64,000 bases of DNA. It comes from Candidatus Yanofskybacteria bacterium RIFCSPHIGHO2_01_FULL_41_26 (lineage in GTDB: Bacteria > Patescibacteriota > Minisyncoccia > 2-02-FULL-40-12 > GWA2-44-9). The translations under genes and the position numbers were made by a program. Shown here one piece after another: positions 2,465 to 49,282 of this stretch (position 1 is its first letter; every line of letters starts with the position of its first letter). The notes under the pieces are model-generated. The model ran no database searches. It was not told the DNA's origin and saw nothing but the letters and a program-made list of their open reading frames with translations. Location: contig MGJB01000006.1 in the NCBI GenBank assembly GCA_001794055.1, forward strand, positions 90,168 through 154,167, read 5' to 3'.

Positions 2465-3624
2465 AGAGACTGGAAAAAATTATAAAATTTATTCGCCACA
2501 ACCTTATAACTGAAATTTTCTTCAACGTATCTTTTTCCGGCCTTCCCCAATTTATTTCTTAAGCCTTCATCTTTTCCCAGCCTTAACATGGCCTCAATCA
2601 AACCTTTTATATTCTCTGGTTCAACCAACAAGCCTGTCACTCCATCCAAAACAACCTCCTCAACAGACCCTGTCCGGGTAGAAATTACCGGCACTTCCAT
2701 TAACAATGCCTCGGCCATGGAATATCCGAATTGCTCCTCCCATCCGCCAAAAGAAATACTGGGATATAAAAAAACATGAGAAATAGACAAAAGTTCCCTA
2801 AGTCCAATAGGGTTAAGCCAAGAAATTTTTGTTATGTTGTCTTCTAGACCAAATTCAATTACCAGTTTCGATATTTCGTTTTCATATTCCCCCGTTCCGG
2901 CTATCATTAAATGGACATTCGGTAAAACAGAAAAAACCTGCTTAAAAGCACGGATTATATTGTGTATGCCTTTTCTGTATCCTATCGCTCCGGCAAAAGA
3001 AAAGACCAGCTTATTCTTGAGGCCATGGATTTTTAAAAACTCGTCAGCATCTACTTTGTGAAAAAAGTCTGCATCAACACCACTCATAGGAATAACGGCA
3101 ATTGGCTTCTTGGTCAAATTTTTAAATATTTTTTCAGCCTTGCGATTGCCGCAAATTATACCGTCAGATAATAACAGATTTAACTTTATGATAACTTTCT
3201 TTAATAAAAGATTTGGTCCCTTAAATTTATTCTCGTAAGGAATGTTCTCCCAAGTGAAAATGACATGCTTGAGACCTAAGAATTTAGACCAGAATGCTTG
3301 ATAAAGCGTGGTAATAAGAATAGGTTCGCTCGAACTATAAACAAGGTTAATCTTTTTTTTTCTCTTTAACCGCCACAAAATAAAAGGGAAAATAGGCATC
3401 CATCCCTTAAATAATCCCCCGATGACAGGGTAGTGGGAATGATGAAAATAGGCCTTGGCGCTGAACACATTTGAATCTTTTGACGGATAATAAACTATTT
3501 TGCCATTTTTAACTTTCCATGATTCCGGCAAAAGAAAAAAAATCTTGCCTTGAGCAGGATAGTGCCGCCATGTGTTAAAATAATTTTCTCTAATATAAGG
3601 AAAGCCAGCTATTAAAATATTCAT
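2461..3624 (-). CDS. Glycosyltransferase family 4
   Basis: EQFGYSMAEA E-x7-E motif, PVISTRTG. Confidence 0.9.
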   Translation of the reverse strand: MNILIAGFPYIRENYFNTWRHYPAQGKIFFLLPESWKVKNGKIVYYPSKDSNVFSAKAYFHHSHYPVIGGLFKGWMPIFPFILWRLKRKKKINLVYSSSEPILITTLYQAFWSKFLGLKHVIFTWENIPYENKFKGPNLLLKKVIIKLNLLLSDGIICGNRKAEKIFKNLTKKPIAVIPMSGVDADFFHKVDADEFLKIHGLKNKLVFSFAGAIGYRKGIHNIIRAFKQVFSVLPNVHLMIAGTGEYENEISKLVIEFGLEDNITKISWLNPIGLRELLSISHVFLYPSISFGGWEEQFGYSMAEALLMEVPVISTRTGSVEEVVLDGVTGLLVEPENIKGLIEAMLRLGKDEGLRNKLGKAGKRYVEENFSYKVVANKFYNFFQSL

Positions 3625-4667
3625 GATTCGCGTATGTGTTTTAACAATTCACCCGCTAAAATACTACTGGCAAGCTTCTCGTTGAATAACGTCTTGGCCC
3701 CTTCGCCGATAATACGGCTGCGATCGGAAGAATTCTTCAGAAATCTAATTTTTTCAGCAAGATCTTCGGGGTCGGCCTTACGGCAAAATAATACATTTTC
3801 TCCATCGCTCAAAAGTTCCCTTGCGGCCGGCGTATCGGCAGTTATTACCGGTTTTCCCATCGCTATTGCTTCATAAACCTTATTCGGTATGACCAGATCC
3901 GTTTTTGGACTATCACCGAAGATGCCTAGACAAATATCGGCCATGGCGACATGTTCAGTCAGATCGAAATAGGACATTTTATCAATAAAATTAATATTTT
4001 TAACATCCAGATCAGCTGCTAATTTTCTATTTTTTTCGTATGTTTGACCTCGGCCTATCAAATTAAACATGATATTCTCTTTTTCAAGTAATTTAGCCGC
4101 TCGGATAATATATTCTACTCCTTGTAGGGGTATATAATAACCGTGAAAATGAACTAAGAACTTATCTTCCTTTTTTGCTGATTCTCTCGGATAAAAAACA
4201 TCTTCGTCGGCGCCGACAAATATCCTTTTAAACTTGTCGGGCGGTAATCCAAATTCTTCAACAAAAAAATTAACATGAGCGTTTGTATCTAATAATACAA
4301 GATCGGCCAAACGACAGGAAAATTTATCGATCCAACGATAATATTTGGCTCGCCAACTGGTCTTGTTAAAATATTGCCGGTCTAAAATGTAGCCGCCATA
4401 ATGAGAAGTAAAGGCATCAAATACAATAGGCTTGAATGTTAGTAATCTGGCTAGAAACATTACCTCCTGACCAGGAAAACCTACTATCATTACATCAAAT
4501 TTTCGTCTTAATTTCAAATACTTTAGAATTAGTTTTAAATATTTAAAAAAGGATTTTATTTCCTCACGACATTCTACAATCTCTGTTCCGTTTTGTTTTA
4601 ATCCCTTTATCAATACTCTATTTCGAGAATAATCGGGATTATATACGCCAAAATACAAAATTCTCAT
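3621..4667 (-). CDS. Glycosyltransferase family 4
   Basis: IPNKVYEAIAMGKPVITAD GT-B motif. Confidence 0.88.
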   Translation of the reverse strand: MRILYFGVYNPDYSRNRVLIKGLKQNGTEIVECREEIKSFFKYLKLILKYLKLRRKFDVMIVGFPGQEVMFLARLLTFKPIVFDAFTSHYGGYILDRQYFNKTSWRAKYYRWIDKFSCRLADLVLLDTNAHVNFFVEEFGLPPDKFKRIFVGADEDVFYPRESAKKEDKFLVHFHGYYIPLQGVEYIIRAAKLLEKENIMFNLIGRGQTYEKNRKLAADLDVKNINFIDKMSYFDLTEHVAMADICLGIFGDSPKTDLVIPNKVYEAIAMGKPVITADTPAARELLSDGENVLFCRKADPEDLAEKIRFLKNSSDRSRIIGEGAKTLFNEKLASSILAGELLKHIRES

Positions 4668-4757
4668 TTGTTTTATCTATTAGGCCTGTTGGCTAAATAT
4701 ACAGGCTTCGTGTATTATACTTACATAACATAAAAGTCAGGTCAAATTAAGATAACT

Positions 4758-5576
4758 ATGATTACTTTCAGGAAATTAGGACTCTTAGGGAGGTTTGGCA
4801 ATCAGCTTTTTCAATATGCCGGCGCCAGAATGTACGCGGATATCAATGGATTTAAGAGCGCTTTTCCAGGTTGGGTTGGTAATAAAATTTTCGAAAATAT
4901 CATATCTTATAACAATCGCGAGTATCTGTTGAGCCGGTTTTTGCCAACTCGACAATTAAACGACTTTCTCTCTTATACCCGCACAGACAAAATAAAATAC
5001 ATGCTTCGTCTTCAGAAACAACTGCCCCAAACTATTGCACTGAATAAATTATATGCGCATCCGGAAGATAATATAAACTTTTTAGGATATTTCCAAAATG
5101 AATTGAGTTTAAAAATATTAAAGGAAAGAAAAAATTACGTTTTAGGTTGGTTTGTTTTTAAAAAAGATATCGCTGATGAGTTTAAAAAGGTAACTCAAAA
5201 CTATAAGCCCTGGACAGGAATTCATATTCGAAGAGGCGACTTTGTAAAAAGGGGCCTTTCTCTGCCGGTTTTTCTTTACAAAGATTTTTTAAAAAGTGTC
5301 GACAAAAAAAATATTTATATTTCCTGTGATGACCCGGAAACAATCTCTGAATTTAAAGATTACTCGCTTATAAGACCAGCAAATCCCTTGCCCGAAATAC
5401 CTAATTTTATCTTTGACTTTTGGATGTTAAAAGAGTCAGAGATGGTTTTGGGTTGCGGTTCGACTTTCTCTTGGTGGGCGGCTTATTTAGGTAACCGAAA
5501 CAATTATTTCAGTCCACCGCTGACTCATTTGTGGCCAAAAGGATATAAACCGACATTAGGAAAAATGGATATCTGA
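4758..5576 (+). CDS. Alpha-1,2-fucosyltransferase (GT11)
   Basis: GRFGNQLFQY, HIRRGDF and STFSWWAAYL GT11 motifs. Confidence 0.85.
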   Translation: MITFRKLGLLGRFGNQLFQYAGARMYADINGFKSAFPGWVGNKIFENIISYNNREYLLSRFLPTRQLNDFLSYTRTDKIKYMLRLQKQLPQTIALNKLYAHPEDNINFLGYFQNELSLKILKERKNYVLGWFVFKKDIADEFKKVTQNYKPWTGIHIRRGDFVKRGLSLPVFLYKDFLKSVDKKNIYISCDDPETISEFKDYSLIRPANPLPEIPNFIFDFWMLKESEMVLGCGSTFSWWAAYLGNRNNYFSPPLTHLWPKGYKPTLGKMDI

Positions 5577-5582
5577 ATTTTA

Positions 5583-6584
5583 TCATTTGAACAAATGAAT
5601 TATTTTCATGGCCCTCTGCTTTAAAGTGTGGTCTTTCAACAGACGTTCATGGCCCGCTTTTGCAATAACTTGTCTTTCATTCTCATGTTTGAGATAATAG
5701 TCAACCTTGGATTGCAGGTCGTTTAGATCTCGAAAAATAACTATTTCTTTGCCTGGAATAAAAAGATCTTCCACATCCTTTCGCCAGTCAGAGATCTGAA
5801 AACCTCCGGCCGCGACAATTTCAAACGTCTTAACATTAACGCCGTTTGTTGCCGGTCTTGTATTCATATTTAGACAAATCTTCGCACGTTTATACGCCTT
5901 GACTGATTCGGCTGCATTAAGCGGCCCGAAATATCTGTCAGCCAATTGGGTCTTCTCCCATCCGCTCCAGCCGAATATTTTTATGTCATAATTTTTAAGA
6001 GCCAATAAGGCCTCCGCCCTTTCCGGATATGCCGCCCCAATAAAACAAATGTCGCATTGAAATTTTTCTTTATCTTTTTCGATAATATCGGCGCCAAGTT
6101 CAACCGGATCAGCTCCGAATGGCACATATTTTATCTTATTTGGAAACTCTAACGTCCTTCTTTCCGTGATCGATGAATCAAATGTCAAGAAAAAATCGTA
6201 ATAGGCGTAACGCGATAAAAACCATTTGTCATATGGGGGGCGATAAATATTCTCTGGAAACCAATTTGCGGTTTTTATGCCCATCTCTTTAATCTTGTTT
6301 AACGTGTTGGGCCTGACACTGGTTGCTTTTATAAACAAAACTGCTTGCGGTTTGAAATTAACACAAGCCAAGATTAATTTATTCTCCAAAAGTTTTTTAT
6401 TGAACTGCCTTAAATGCGGAGTCTTTCTCGCTATGTTCCATAATACAGAAATTTTTCCTAAAAATTTAGGAAGAAAATGCGCCATCCGTTCCTCTATATA
6501 AAAAATATCAACGCCGCAAGCAATAAATGCTCTTTTAATTTGATCATTATAATCGGAATGAGGTGCGACAATTATCAGTTTCAT
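5583..6584 (-). CDS. CgeB-like glycosyltransferase (Glyco_trans_1_2)
   Basis: DICFIG, AKICLN, NVKTFEIVAAGGFQISD, ERQVIAKAGHERLLKDHT. Confidence 0.8.
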   Translation of the reverse strand: MKLIIVAPHSDYNDQIKRAFIACGVDIFYIEERMAHFLPKFLGKISVLWNIARKTPHLRQFNKKLLENKLILACVNFKPQAVLFIKATSVRPNTLNKIKEMGIKTANWFPENIYRPPYDKWFLSRYAYYDFFLTFDSSITERRTLEFPNKIKYVPFGADPVELGADIIEKDKEKFQCDICFIGAAYPERAEALLALKNYDIKIFGWSGWEKTQLADRYFGPLNAAESVKAYKRAKICLNMNTRPATNGVNVKTFEIVAAGGFQISDWRKDVEDLFIPGKEIVIFRDLNDLQSKVDYYLKHENERQVIAKAGHERLLKDHTLKQRAMKIIHLFK

Positions 6585-37798: not shown

Positions 37799-37837
37799 CC
37801 TGTGGATAACCGACTTGCGAAGTCGGTTATCCACAGG
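37799..37837 (+). repeat. 39-bp REP palindrome, left flank of RAYT
   Basis: CCTGTGGATAACCGACTT-GCG-AAGTCGGTTATCCACAGG, perfect 18-bp arms. Confidence 0.95.
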
Positions 37838-37861
37838 TACACTTTGGCAATCCAACAAACT

Positions 37862-38536
37862 ATGGCAACTGAACAAAATTTTTACCACACGCTAAATAGG
37901 GGTGTCGAAAAACGTAATATATTCCTAGATAAGCAGGACCATTTTCGTTTTATTCACAATTTATATGAACTCAATAATGAAGATAGGGTTGATACCACCT
38001 TTCATTCTTTTAAAGAAGATCCGAATCTTACCGACTTCGCAAATCGGAAACAAAGAAAAATATTGGTAGACATTCTTGCGTTTTGTTTAATGCCAAATCA
38101 TTATCACCTGCTTCTTTCACCAAAAATAGAGGGTGGGGTTCCTAAGTTTATGAATAAGATAAACATTGGCTACGCAAAATATTTTAATAAAAAATATAAG
38201 AGAGTTGGAGCGTTGTTTCAAGGAAGATATAAAAAAATATTAATAGCAGATAATACTCACTTTCTCCACCTTCCTTTTTATATCCATTTCAATCCGCTTG
38301 ATTTAAAATATCCTGAATGGAGAGAAAATAGAATATTAAATGCTGAAAAAGCTTTAGGGTTTTTAAAATCCTATCGTTGGAGCAGCCATTTAGACTATTT
38401 GGGTGTTAAAAATTTTCCGTCGATTATAAATAATGGCTTACTTACAGAAATTTTTGACGGAAGTAAGGGTTACGAAAAACTGATTAATAATTACCTAAAA
38501 GATATTCAAATAGATCCAGAGGTTGCGTTAGAATAA
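37862..38536 (+). mobile_element. REP-associated tyrosine transposase (RAYT, HUH Y1, IS200-like)
   Basis: YHTLNRG, FCLMPNHYHLLL (HUH), YFNKKYKRVGALFQGRYK, YIHFNP, YRWSS; flanked by inverted REPs. Confidence 0.9.
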
Positions 38537-45565: not shown

Positions 45566-45907
45566 TTATCTTAATTCTGTGCCAAGAGCAACCTCTTTTT
45601 CGGGTATAATTAAGATTGGGCCAGTTTTACTGTTAGCGGCCAGAACCATGCCTTGACTTTCCAGACCCATCAAAGATCGGGGTTCAAGGTTGGCAACAAT
45701 AACAATTTGTTTGCCGATTAAATCTTCAGGATTATAGGCCTTTCCGATTCCGGCAATTACCTGCCTGCCGGCAGGTAGGTTTGCCTTTTCTTCTGGACCT
45801 AAGTCGAGTATTAATCTGAGTAACTTTTCCGAACCATCAACACTCTCGGCTGAAACAACTTTTGCCACTTTCAACTCAACTTTTTTGAATTCATCAATAG
45901 TTATCAT
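45566..45907 (-). CDS. tRNA-binding OB domain (MetG C-terminal/Trbp111-like)
   Basis: ITIDEFKKVELKV, GSEKLL, VANLEPR.LMGLESQGMVLAA. Confidence 0.88.
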   Translation of the reverse strand: MITIDEFKKVELKVAKVVSAESVDGSEKLLRLILDLGPEEKANLPAGRQVIAGIGKAYNPEDLIGKQIVIVANLEPRSLMGLESQGMVLAANSKTGPILIIPEKEVALGTELR

Positions 45908-46532: not shown

Positions 46533-46568
46533 TAAAACAAAGAGCCGAGTCTCACTCAAGCTCGGCTC
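46533..46568 (-). terminator. Intrinsic terminator ending the 48.1-46.5 kb transcript
   Basis: GAGCCGAG/CTCGGCTC stem followed by UUUGUUUUA on the minus strand. Confidence 0.7.
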
Positions 46569-46603
46569 GAATTCTTCATTTCCTCTCCTTTTAAGTCTGA
46601 AGT

Positions 46604-46680
46604 TGGCGGGCCATGAAGGATTTTTACCTTCACCTTTCGGTTTTGGAGACCGATCGCTCTGTCTTTTAAGCTACTGACCC
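46604..46680 (-). tRNA. tRNA-Trp(CCA), atypical/degenerate
   Basis: Cloverleaf with TCGGT-CT-CCA-AA-ACCGA anticodon arm, G73, encoded CCA; T-loop TAAAAAT, D-loop lacks GG. Confidence 0.7.
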
Positions 46681-46855
46681 AAAATTGTGAAAAAACGAGG
46701 GAGGGAATCCGTGGGCGCTCCGCACACCTCCGGGGAGCATGCCCCAAAGGTGCGTATTACTCTCGGATTTTCCACAATTCCCTCCCACCAAAATCCTGAG
46801 CTTAGTCTAAGGACTTTTGTGGGAGACCGAGCACATTGTGCTCGGTCGGATGACG

Positions 46856-47176
46856 CTACAGGTAGCGCTTGAAGGCCTGGCGGGCGGCCATGGTTCGCTC
46901 GGCGCGGCGCCGTTCCATCTCGACTACCGTTTGCGGGTAGCGATAGAAACGGAGACCGGCCTTGCGACCCAGAGCTGCGCACCGACCACAGTGGATGTGA
47001 TCGGCCAGATCCTTGGCCATGGAAGGCCAGCGACCGGCCATCCTGCGTATGGCGGCCAGCGTCGGCACCCAGGCCTCGGCCTGCGTCAGCTTCGCCGTGC
47101 ACGGCTTGCCCGGATAGGGCTCGCCATGACACACAAAGGGCTTCGCCGGCACAACAATGGAAACTTGCTCTGTCAT
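46856..47176 (-). CDS. Small basic Cys/His-containing hypothetical protein
   Basis: AGGAGGT SD before ATG; CHGEPYPGKPC...HIHCGRC. Confidence 0.6.
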   Translation of the reverse strand: MTEQVSIVVPAKPFVCHGEPYPGKPCTAKLTQAEAWVPTLAAIRRMAGRWPSMAKDLADHIHCGRCAALGRKAGLRFYRYPQTVVEMERRRAERTMAARQAFKRYL

Positions 47177-47333
47177 CTGACCTCCTAAAAAGAACTGGTT
47201 AAACTACTCCCATCAAAATGTTCAAAATCGAGCTTTTAACATTTTGATGGGATGGGGAGAATTGCCTGTTCTACTCTCCCCCTTTGCCTGTTTATTTTTC
47301 GTCGGACACAGCAGGCTCCGACTAGGGTACCCG

Positions 47334-47591
47334 CTAGTTCAAATGAATCAAACTAGCGAACCACTGCGGTCCTAATACCCTAATGCCGTTTTCCCTTGCA
47401 AGCTCTCGTAGAGCCGCAAGTTCATCGACATAAGGAGTAAGAACTTCACCCCCATTCATCCGTTCCACCTTTCGGAAGAACTTTTGAATAGAAGCGCAGT
47501 AGTTAAATAACTCCAGCGCAGGTCTTACCTGACCATCTGGAGCTGGTACCCAGCTGAAAGTGGGCTTCCGCCCACCCTTCGGCTTGTACAT
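47334..47591 (-). CDS. Hypothetical protein (85 aa)
   Basis: Open frame within the transcription unit; no clear SD. Confidence 0.35.
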   Translation of the reverse strand: MYKPKGGRKPTFSWVPAPDGQVRPALELFNYCASIQKFFRKVERMNGGEVLTPYVDELAALRELARENGIRVLGPQWFASLIHLN

Positions 47592-47639
47592 ATCATGAAA
47601 AGAACTCTTCGACTCACTCTGTTCGCTCAGAGCAAGCCC

Positions 47640-48000
47640 GGGAGGGATGGTGGTGGGCGCTGGACCGTAGCTCGCAAGCAGCGAGCTTCAGGCATTCGCG
47701 ATCCATTTGGGTTCACCTGATACCAAGCCGTCGCCGTCACGGAAGGCCTAGCCCCCGCGGCATACGATCGGTCTCTTGGCTAGGTTCCGCACAACGCTCG
47801 CTTGCTAAACGAGGGTCCCCAATGCGGTATTCCTGCCACGCCATTCACCACATCCCCCTACTTAAACTGATTCTGCCACCAATGCAATGAACATGCACCT
47901 CGACAGAGAGTTTTACCGGCTAAAGCACGGTACACTCCGAGACAAGAATAATCAGCTTAAGCAGGAGGACGTGATGGTCATCAAACCACTGCCCCCTCCT
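47640..48000 (-). ncRNA. Candidate structured ncRNA, family not recognised
   Basis: 27-bp helix 47846-47872/47950-47976 with five G-U pairs only on the minus strand; multiple internal stems. Confidence 0.6.
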
Positions 48001-48121
48001 ACTCTACCTACTTTTATAAAGTTTGGCTAAAGAGCTCAGAACCGATTTGAGGGTCCGGTATATTTGTTTAACGGTTGCCTCTCAATTTGATCGTTTCCTC
48101 TTTCTTTAACCTTACGGCAAG

Positions 48122-48150
48122 ATACTATCACAAAACAAAAATCTTGTCAA
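48122..48150 (-). promoter_or_regulatory. Sigma70 promoter
   Basis: Minus strand TTGACA-17 nt-TAGTAT. Confidence 0.75.
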
Positions 48151-48302
48151 GTCCTTTTGACATTTTAAAACTAAAAAACATCAAAAACTGGCTTAGAATA
48201 TAGATTATTTTACTACTATATTTTGTCAGTAAAAACTGAATTTATACTCAAGATCAGACCTCAAATAAATTTCCCGAGGACCGTCCTCGGTGTCAACAAA
48301 GC

Positions 48303-48331
48303 TTGACAAAATAAATAAAGTAGAATATAAT
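48303..48331 (+). promoter_or_regulatory. Perfect consensus sigma70 promoter
   Basis: TTGACA-17 nt-TATAAT. Confidence 0.85.
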
Positions 48332-48472
48332 AGTAGACGATGGCAGGACAGGAGTTCTGCCTTCAGGAAAGGAGGATTCATCGTGGGAGCTCTATAAAGA
48401 CCTTATTTATAGACCTACGAAAATAAAGTAGTAAAAAATGGTCGTCCTAAAATCCACTTTCAGACACGAGAG

Positions 48473-48496
48473 GGCCCCGCTACGGGGCCATTTTTT
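48473..48496 (+). terminator. Intrinsic terminator
   Basis: GGCCCCG-CTA-CGGGGCC-ATTTTTT. Confidence 0.75.
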
Positions 48497-48538: not shown

Positions 48539-49282
48539 ATGTTTGAAAAGTTACGACATCTAGGACTTTCTGAAAACGAAGCCAAAATATATATGGCCAT
48601 GTTGGAGTTGGGCCCTTCAATAGTAGTTGAAATTGCAAGAAAATCCCAAATCAACAGACCGACTTCTTATGTTCAGATTGAATCCCTCAAGAAAAAAGGG
48701 CTTGTCAGCACTCAAATAAAAGGCAAAAAACAATACTTCATGGCCGAATCTCCCGATAAATTAGAACTCCTGATAGATAGTGAGTTCAAAACACTTGAAA
48801 ACAAAAAAAGTGAACTAAATACTTTTTTGCCGGAATTACTGAATCTTTTTAATAGTTCTGATCAGAGACCGCATGTTAAATTCTTTGAAGGCAAAGAAGG
48901 TGTTTTGGCTTTGCAAAAAGAATTTTTAAAAACAGATGATACTCCTATACTTGGAATCACATCTCTAGATAACGTATTTGAAGTATTCCCTGAATTTGAA
49001 AATACTTACATAAAGAAAAGAGTCCAAAAGAAAATATCTTCCCGAACGATTTATACTTCCAAGAAAGGCCCCATATTAAAAGAATCGGACGAGACAAGCT
49101 TACGAGAATCCAAATACGTTGAGCCGAATCAATTGCCTCTCGGAATTGATATCACTGTTTTCAAAAACAAGGTTGCCATTGCAGCCCTTAAGGGTAAAAT
49201 ATCCGGAACCCTAATCGAACACGAAGAAGTTGCCGATTCTTTCAGGGCAATTTTTGAACTTGTTTGGAGTAAAATAGATTAA
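48539..49282 (+). CDS. TrmB family transcriptional regulator
   Basis: LGLSENEAKIY..LLELG, RPTSY...L.KKGLV, PHVKFFEGKEG. Confidence 0.85.
   Translation: MFEKLRHLGLSENEAKIYMAMLELGPSIVVEIARKSQINRPTSYVQIESLKKKGLVSTQIKGKKQYFMAESPDKLELLIDSEFKTLENKKSELNTFLPELLNLFNSSDQRPHVKFFEGKEGVLALQKEFLKTDDTPILGITSLDNVFEVFPEFENTYIKKRVQKKISSRTIYTSKKGPILKESDETSLRESKYVEPNQLPLGIDITVFKNKVAIAALKGKISGTLIEHEEVADSFRAIFELVWSKID

Follow-up and report, generated by a model that had tools for sequence, protein, structure and literature searches.

A candidate RNA-punctuated variable operon in a Yanofskybacteria genome and its relatives

Among the described systems that come closest to the locus reported here are variable genes flanked by hammerhead ribozymes, for which cutting in vitro is described by Perreault et al. 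(2011, PMC3088659), and boxA elements, a divergent form of which is bound by NusB in Bacillus according to PMC13753749. The present locus lies in a 64,000-nucleotide (nt) stretch of DNA (the window, whose numbering is used throughout) from Candidatus Yanofskybacteria bacterium RIFCSPHIGHO2_01_FULL_41_26 (contig MGJB01000006.1, positions 90,168 to 154,167), an ultra-small member, of groundwater type, of the Candidate Phyla Radiation (CPR) with a genome of 0.8 Mb; coordinates given without a tool printout were read by eye from a ruler and may be off by 1-2 nt. The transcription unit at 46533..48150 is rather probably one copy of an operon with variable cassettes that Paceibacteria-type CPR bacteria carry, that is, a repressor-controlled and antiterminated polycistron cut into separate units. 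The architecture can be read from the compared sequences as a fixed regulatory head followed by interchangeable small protein genes or folded RNAs, which are split by a hairpin and a heptamer, and we infer that it works by repression, antitermination, and cutting. No account of this type of locus or of its RNA was found in the main texts of the open-access literature.

An earlier description made from the letters of the window (the sequence-only reading) had presented this segment as a GC-rich, rRNA-operon-like unit of structured RNA, mini open reading frames (ORFs), and an odd tRNA, and every feature that it named was found in its place (Table 1). The promoter matches 10 of 12 consensus positions and has an extended -10, and no further minus-strand promoter match occurs within 48121-46533. 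GC content reaches 0.43-0.62 in 400-nt windows of the unit versus approximately 0.35-0.43 in the flanks. On the minus strand, eight of nine segments of the unit, both coding regions included, are more stably folded than shuffled sequence (z-score -2.7 to -8.4), and the minus strand has the lower folding energy in eight of the nine, while two flanking control genes gave z-scores of -0.1 and 0.7; for 47600-48040, z is -6.97 and none of 100 shuffles was as stable. The prediction of a single, strongly promoted, and highly structured transcription unit is thereby upheld. Other parts of the earlier description were not supported. More than one third of the unit is protein-coding, its content and order vary among close relatives, the core RNA has a patchy distribution (7 of 105 genomes), and the tRNA is in none of the related arrays examined, all of which speaks against a stable-RNA operon of the rRNA kind. 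The mini-ORFs are present but not mini, being real protein genes of 85 and 106 amino acids that occupy approximately 36% of the unit, and no GOLLD match was found. A reading of the unit as an array of the TIGR type (tandem interspaced guide RNAs; PMC12045711) was dropped, no regular repeat period having been found.

Table 1. Features of the locus in window coordinates (z, z-score of folding)
Feature	Position	Strand	Basis
TrmB-type helix-turn-helix regulator gene, locus anchor, presumed repressor	48539..49282	+	Pfam TrmB, E 1e-14
Divergent short transcript: promoter, folded RNA, Shine-Dalgarno (SD) sequence and minigene, terminator	48303..48495	+	z -4.9
Operator candidate (inverted repeat, 5-nt arms, 8-nt spacer) over divergent -35	48291..48308	.	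8/13 loci
Operator candidate over main -35	48145..48162	.	13/13 loci; spacer 8 in 10, 9 in 3
Main sigma-70-type promoter, extended -10	48122..48150	-	10/12 consensus; kept in relatives
Genus-specific leader element	48043..48093	-	Module map; folding no better than shuffles, z -0.8
Long G.U-rich hairpin (47978-47841)	47841..47999	-	z -6.5 minus, -3.8 plus
Core RNA (module B), ~218-nt multi-helix junction with pseudoknot	47641..47858	-	Covariation; no Rfam match
U-rich boxA-like heptamer	47599..47605	-	Second copy 47195-47189; variant 48035-48029
ORF1, 85-amino-acid conserved protein, no SD	47334..47591	-	Alignment, model; mRNA folding z -8.4
Module C+D: small H-type pseudoknot, then hairpin with conserved purine-rich loop	47254..47324	-	Compensatory changes in both stems
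Spacer hairpin 1, punctuation family	47208..47252	-	Inverted repeat 47208-47226/47234-47252
ORF2, 106-amino-acid conserved protein	46856..47176	-	Homologs, third-position excess, model
Double hairpin (small hairpin and spacer hairpin 2)	46782..46847	-	Inverted repeat 46825-46835/46837-46847
Module E, branched hairpin domain	46699..46786	-	z -4.7; one homolog, in G004
Second, atypical tRNA-Trp	46604..46680	-	47.3 bits vs 71-72 for the window's two other tRNAs
SD, 7-codon ORF (46579-46556), intrinsic terminator	46533..46589	-	Read by eye

The variable nature of the unit emerges from its relatives, in which the same two promoters and 0.7-4.3 kb of GC-rich sequence come after the TrmB-type gene; a TrmB-type homolog adjoins the array in related loci including L094, L102, and L103. 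Thirteen mapped arrays differ in both content and order. Module B is present in 8 and ORF2 in 12 of them, ORF1 stands before ORF2 in three, after it in two, and also after it in L063, and many other small ORF families come and go.

What recurs between these modules is a heptamer and a family of hairpins. The heptamer, whose copies at 47605 and 47195 and boxA-like variant starting at 48035 had all been located by the sequence-only reading, was counted 31 times in the sense and never in the antisense orientation across 16 arrays (35,710 nt in total, with a mean of 1.6 and a maximum of 6 in shuffles), and it stands immediately 5' of ORF2 in 10 of 12 arrays. It is similar to the boxA sequences of E. 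coli and Bacillus given in PMC13753749, and the genes for NusB and RNase III are located side by side (G000:C6:171068-171971). The boxA-like motif of the earlier description is upheld as strand-specific, with NusB encoded in the genome, but the first site, at 48035, appears by eye to be altered in the two closest relatives. The hairpin series of the earlier description was also recovered, including the inverted repeat of module E at 46699-46708/46777-46786. A spacer hairpin lies 3' of ORF2 in all 12 arrays with this gene. Over 31 copies, the hairpin arms form 240 Watson-Crick, 35 G.U, and 4 A.C pairs, and folding of the sense strand is therefore favoured. The spacer hairpin is no genome-wide repeat in this genome; a strict hairpin pattern matched 13 of 301 genomes of the class (3 for the reversed control), and a TrmB-type gene was found near 4 of the 11 fetched loci, one of them only partial. 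The array L111, in another Minisyncoccia genome, combines module B with four matches to the type III hammerhead that score 37-42 bits and thus fall short of the gathering score; three of these matches directly precede the heptamer or a one-base variant of it. These matches punctuate a small-ORF array at approximately 3990-5955 in reversed coordinates. No hammerhead match was found in the window or in seven close (Yanofskybacteria) arrays.

The regulatory head combines the TrmB-type gene with two divergent promoters, each overlapped by a palindrome. The palindromes were sought at 16 loci, and the counts in Table 1 refer to the 13 in which the script located the main promoter. This genome holds three such sites, two at the locus and the third within a gene; because other spacer lengths give 0-4 sites each, it is the position of the palindromes and not their number that serves as evidence. 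The combined palindrome and promoter pattern was detected in 8 of 62 genomes of the family, with none in the control. The divergent transcript consists of a perfect sigma-70 promoter (48303-48331), a 4-codon minigene (48383-48397), and a terminator (48473-48495). At 14 of 15 loci, a divergent promoter precedes an SD-led ORF that is 3-8 codons long, and the minigene begins with Met-Gly in 12 of 14, mostly as Met-Gly-x-x, both counts being without a chance control. In most relatives, this transcript is convergent with the TrmB-type gene. The slot of the genus-specific leader is occupied by a different leader in other genera. A conserved leader RNA with invariant motifs, module A, sits in this slot, directly behind the promoter, in 10 of the 13 arrays (L034, L035, L036, L037, L038, L039, L040, L041, L060, and L107) and gave no Rfam match in the arrays scanned.

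Taken as a repressor-controlled polycistron, the locus might work as follows. The TrmB-type protein would repress both promoters until induction. The repeated heptamers would load NusB-S10, allowing the polymerase to read through a hairpin-dense transcript. Cleavage of this transcript, probably by RNase III at long duplexes here and by hammerheads in other lineages, would yield units that are each stable on their own. Until cutting releases the folded 218-nt core RNA, its closing helix would be masked by the long upstream hairpin; this RNA would itself be functional RNA cargo of the system. Modules would be gained, lost, and reordered via ordinary recombination among shared non-coding pieces. 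In favour of this reading are the differing content and order of the arrays, the one-sided orientation of the heptamer, the G.U excess in the hairpin arms, the operator candidates on the main promoters, the covariation in modules B and C, the NusB and RNase III genes, the hammerhead matches of L111 beside the heptamer, and the cutting in vitro of variable genes flanked by hammerheads. Several points weigh against this interpretation. The arrays are related, so that the counts are non-independent and overstate independence. No copy of the heptamer was seen by eye in the leader of the host's own 23S gene, and the motif would serve just as well as an entry point for a nuclease or as an enhancer of translation. 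Proximity is what suggests that the TrmB-type protein may bind the palindromes as putative operators, and one palindrome arm is the -35 itself. The ends of blocks shared between arrays are only slightly enriched in hairpins, which does not establish the latter as recombination sites. Moreover, among the cargo proteins of relatives, a deaminase is the only named family and none has a known function.

The core RNA, module B, is the main RNA of the unit. Eleven distinct copies were compared, seven of them in genomes of the family, three of metagenomic origin, and one in a further Minisyncoccia genome; three of six metagenome matches were omitted as duplicates or interrupted copies. In a 10-copy alignment, for which anchors were placed on invariant motifs, 66 of 70 cells of the P7-like helix are paired and four of its positions show double-sided changes, and the first three pairs of the P6-like helix are paired in 30 of 30 cells with one double-sided change. 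The P4-like helix is nearly invariant, which is partly built in, as most of the extra copies were found via these motifs. RNAalifold predicted 43 pairs from nine copies, 17 of them with a double-sided change. A pseudoknot of four pairs (47837-47834 with 47694-47691) connects the strand that follows the outer helix with one within the P7-like domain; it is paired in 41 of 44 cells with seven sequence combinations, a result reached by none of 20,000 row shuffles, although its 5' strand was placed by eye and the row shuffle ignores kinship. Two copies pair just two and three of the four positions. The homolog search and covariation test that the sequence-only reading had proposed thus yielded compensatory changes, including those of the partly eye-placed pseudoknot, and its undescribed structured RNA stands: the sole Rfam match of the unit, and the only one at the gathering threshold, is tRNA, and modules B, C, and E had no credible match to the Rfam 15 covariance models at E values up to 10 or 0.5.

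A covariance model of the 5' 81 positions of module B found a single copy in each of seven genomes among the order's 105, every one of them a member of this family (7 of 62), whereas 149 other genomes of the class gave three weak matches (19-23 bits), which were treated as chance. The exact pattern occurs at five loci among all species genomes. A likeness of module B to the cyclic di-AMP riboswitch and to group II domain V was dropped since no Rfam signal was seen, and an 11-nt complementarity between module B and the tRNA was at chance level. Because the 3' strand of the long upstream hairpin is also the 5' strand of the closing helix of module B, the two structures are mutually exclusive. 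By eye, the same arrangement is present in the other copies. At 47943-47898, the long hairpin contains an inserted dispersed repeat, further copies of which lie elsewhere in this genome and in related ones; the long hairpin of L032 is without it. In L037 (reversed ~2650-3660) and L062 (reversed from ~540), insertion sequences break the promoter region or module B.

It is unlikely that module B (and possibly module C+D) is catalytic, as a ribozyme of a new class by which the polycistron is cut or spliced in place of the hammerheads of related arrays. Its pseudoknotted core, unpaired linkers that do not vary, and peripheral stems that vary freely are what such an RNA might show. The helix order is like that of the group I core, and module B shares the L111 array and a downstream heptamer with four hammerhead matches, of which none was found in the window or in the seven Yanofskybacteria arrays scanned. 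However, the P7-like helix has no bulged guanosine-binding pocket, no ribozyme or intron of Rfam was matched, and module B is present in a single copy per genome, unlike punctuation elements, which recur. Nor was any array seen to lack it precisely, as an intron would be missing; L039 has an internally reduced form by eye. The more specific proposal of a 218-nt ribozyme with a group-I-like core and no guanosine pocket, which is silenced by the hairpin, activated by processing, and exchanged among CPR genomes as a cassette of an operon that in other members relies on hammerheads, appears equally doubtful.

Just as improbable is the possibility that these RNAs are cis-acting regulators of the next gene, such as riboswitches or protein-binding attenuators, with the alternative between hairpin and closing helix as the switch. 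The mutually exclusive pairings and a U-rich tract 3' of the closing helix agree with this explanation, and the size and topology of module C are those of small ligand-binding pseudoknots. Module C, which is located 3' of ORF1, was found in 8 of 401 genomes of the class, in six families; a script pattern returned seven true and two spurious rows. One stem 2 pair is flipped in two families and one stem 1 pair in a third, and in the hairpin behind it the loop is kept and the stem varies, by eye. On the other hand, the gene 3' of module B varies between arrays, module B is located mid-array in L034, module C follows rather than precedes ORF1, and no riboswitch family was matched at E values up to 10.

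The two protein genes had no match to a described family, but both gave confident structure models. ORF1 was aligned in eight sequences (seven homologs, 33-65% identity), and its predicted structure has a predicted local distance difference test (pLDDT) value of 85.9. Homologs of ORF2 accounted for 46 of 48 candidates and were present in 12 of the order's 105 genomes, with 108 clusters found by profile. Compared with seven relatives, ORF2 shows 19-32 differences at third codon positions and 5-14 at first or second positions, with the excess seen in all seven. Three Cys residues are invariant in 30 aligned sequences, together with a fourth Cys/His site, and the predicted structure (pLDDT 86.6) probably comprises a zinc finger and a long helix, which suggests metal binding. 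Neither protein had a significant match in Pfam, NCBIfam, or PHROGs, and Atlas searches gave no usable family. The best hits of fold searches had Z 4.1 for ORF1 (root-mean-square deviation (rmsd) 3.3, 74 aligned) and Z 4.0 for ORF2 (rmsd 3.3 over 68 aligned residues, with zinc fingers, the B-box type included, turning up repeatedly in weak rows), and neither protein had a Foldseek match at E 0.001, which does not imply new folds.

That the locus is a mobile island of integron-like or phage origin, with hairpins that serve as DNA recombination sites and RNA structure as a by-product, is considerably less probable. The cassette-like shuffling and the imperfect palindromes between ORFans fit such an origin, PeSL (promoter early stem-loop) cassettes behave in this way in T4-type phages according to PMC2839356, and block ends are weakly enriched at hairpins, which make up 8.9% of the arrays and contain 27 of the 202 ends of shared blocks (p 0.02, the ends not being independent). 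Yet there is no integrase at the locus, and no recombinase adjoins it; the sole tyrosine recombinase match (PF00589) of the genome is on contig C2. A two-motif pattern gave 27 viral matches, all in unrelated sequence, and three further viral scans gave none, so that module B, module C, the hairpin, and the tRNA have no real viral match; phage and plasmid collections were matched by the tRNA part alone. The G.U bias and the covarying pseudoknots also point to RNA. Finally, an operon of stable RNAs with a housekeeping role, such as a 6S or signal recognition particle (SRP) RNA that has diverged and is joined by a tRNA, is scarcely credible and is largely refuted by the patchy distribution: although no 6S or small SRP RNA was found in this genome and a strong promoter, boxA-like sites, and a tRNA are at hand, module B is present in 7 of 62 genomes of the family (7 of 105 in the order) rather than near-universally, RNase P and tmRNA are located elsewhere, no other array examined contains the tRNA, and the unit includes two protein genes.

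The degenerate tRNA-Trp (46680-46604, 47.3 bits) that the sequence-only reading had noted retains the cloverleaf, the Trp anticodon, an encoded CCA, and largely its stems. The GG of the D-loop and the consensus of the T-loop have been replaced by runs of A, and the canonical elbow bases are gone; the host's other Trp tRNA, on contig C9, likewise departs from the consensus. A scan of 16 loci revealed no sense-strand tRNA inside the arrays, and in 105 genomes of the order only ordinary Trp tRNAs resembled it. Low-threshold ARAGORN calls in relatives were not upheld by Rfam. The likeliest reading of the tRNA is that of a cassette of recent capture, which may be decaying or have been repurposed. 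Behind it, the SD-led 7-codon ORF and the terminator were present as described earlier. In four loci compared by eye, the start and end of this ORF resemble those of a basic gene of approximately 50 codons that is the last gene in 8 of the 13 mapped arrays, and it is probably a deletion remnant of that gene. The basic family (46-53 amino acids) closes most arrays, for example L032:3687-3824 (-) and L038:1698-1850 (-), with its 3' end overlapping the terminator, and has no Pfam or NCBIfam match; it is reminiscent of ribosome rescue factors of the ArfA type.

Some further observations were made in these genomes. The arrays contain a conserved family of 22-24 codon genes (L063:785-856 (-), L107:2187-2255 (+), and L105:3845-3940 (+)), and some genomes have two arrays or extra promoter-palindrome units (G005 contigs C12 and C22, and G002 contig C15). 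Within the window, an ORF at 37802-38536 (+) has near-identical palindromic sequence at both ends and resembles a tyrosine transposase associated with repetitive extragenic palindromes (REP), and a short palindromic repeat lies in frame (45757-45780) within a gene with a tRNA-binding domain, most homologs of which span the same length at lower identity. A probe search of the genome located no bacterial 16S gene. The only 16S-like sequence, with an archaeal-looking 5' end, is on the minus strand of contig C4 of G000 (5.7 kb; ~2620-3090 of the reversed contig), and this contig may be a contaminant or misbinned.

If the favoured reading holds, minimal CPR genomes retain a fast-evolving operon headed by a repressor, with a transcript that is folded nearly end to end and a cargo of both RNA and protein. 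This would suggest that an inducible programme has gone unrecognised, and that many small units can be expressed in this manner from one promoter. Modules B and C+D are two directly testable RNA candidates. Several ribozyme classes were first found as unexplained motifs in hammerhead-rich contexts, and module B has a context of the same kind.

In comparison with known systems, the locus shares a long transcript, variable genes, and recurring RNA separators with the hammerhead-cluster prophage transcripts (PMC3088659), and L111 does contain hammerhead matches. Here, however, neither the window nor the seven close arrays gave a hammerhead match, the slot is chromosomal and next to a TrmB-type gene, there is no integrase, and large RNAs are themselves cargo. 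The PeSL cassettes found in T4-type phages (Arbiol et al., 2010, PMC2839356) similarly have repeated stem-loops between ORFans and modular shuffling; each of them has its own promoter and termination, whereas the bacterial array has one promoter and hairpins without U-tails. A strong promoter, boxA-like motifs directly after helices, and the presence of NusB are reminiscent of Nus antitermination in rrn leaders (PMC13753749), but the motif is repeated after most modules, rRNA is lacking, protein genes are included, and binding is putative. With integron arrays, the locus has in common a single promoter, interchangeable ORFan cassettes, and imperfect palindromes; it differs in that no integrase is adjacent, the palindromes favour sense-strand RNA, and crossovers are not clearly at palindromes.

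As for the RNAs, module B has a connectivity of the P3-P7 pseudoknot type known from the group I core (Rfam Intron_gpI). The helix order common to both is a pseudoknot strand, a P4-like helix, a P6-like helix, the 5' strand of a P7-like helix, the pseudoknot partner, a P8-like hairpin, and the 3' strand of the P7-like helix. In contrast to a group I intron, the P7-like helix is continuous in 10 copies and lacks a bulged G-binding site, linker lengths differ, the ends are closed on each other, and there is neither a host exon nor an Rfam match. GOLLD, ROOL, OLE, and the raiA motif are also GC-rich, multi-helix, and pseudoknotted, and module B has a tRNA nearby in this one genome; it is smaller than GOLLD, ROOL, and OLE, is a swappable cassette, and has no conserved link to tRNA, and no Rfam family was matched, raiA included. 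The system as a whole is considered to be an RNA-punctuated variable operon, which is a known kind, with at least two undescribed RNA families.

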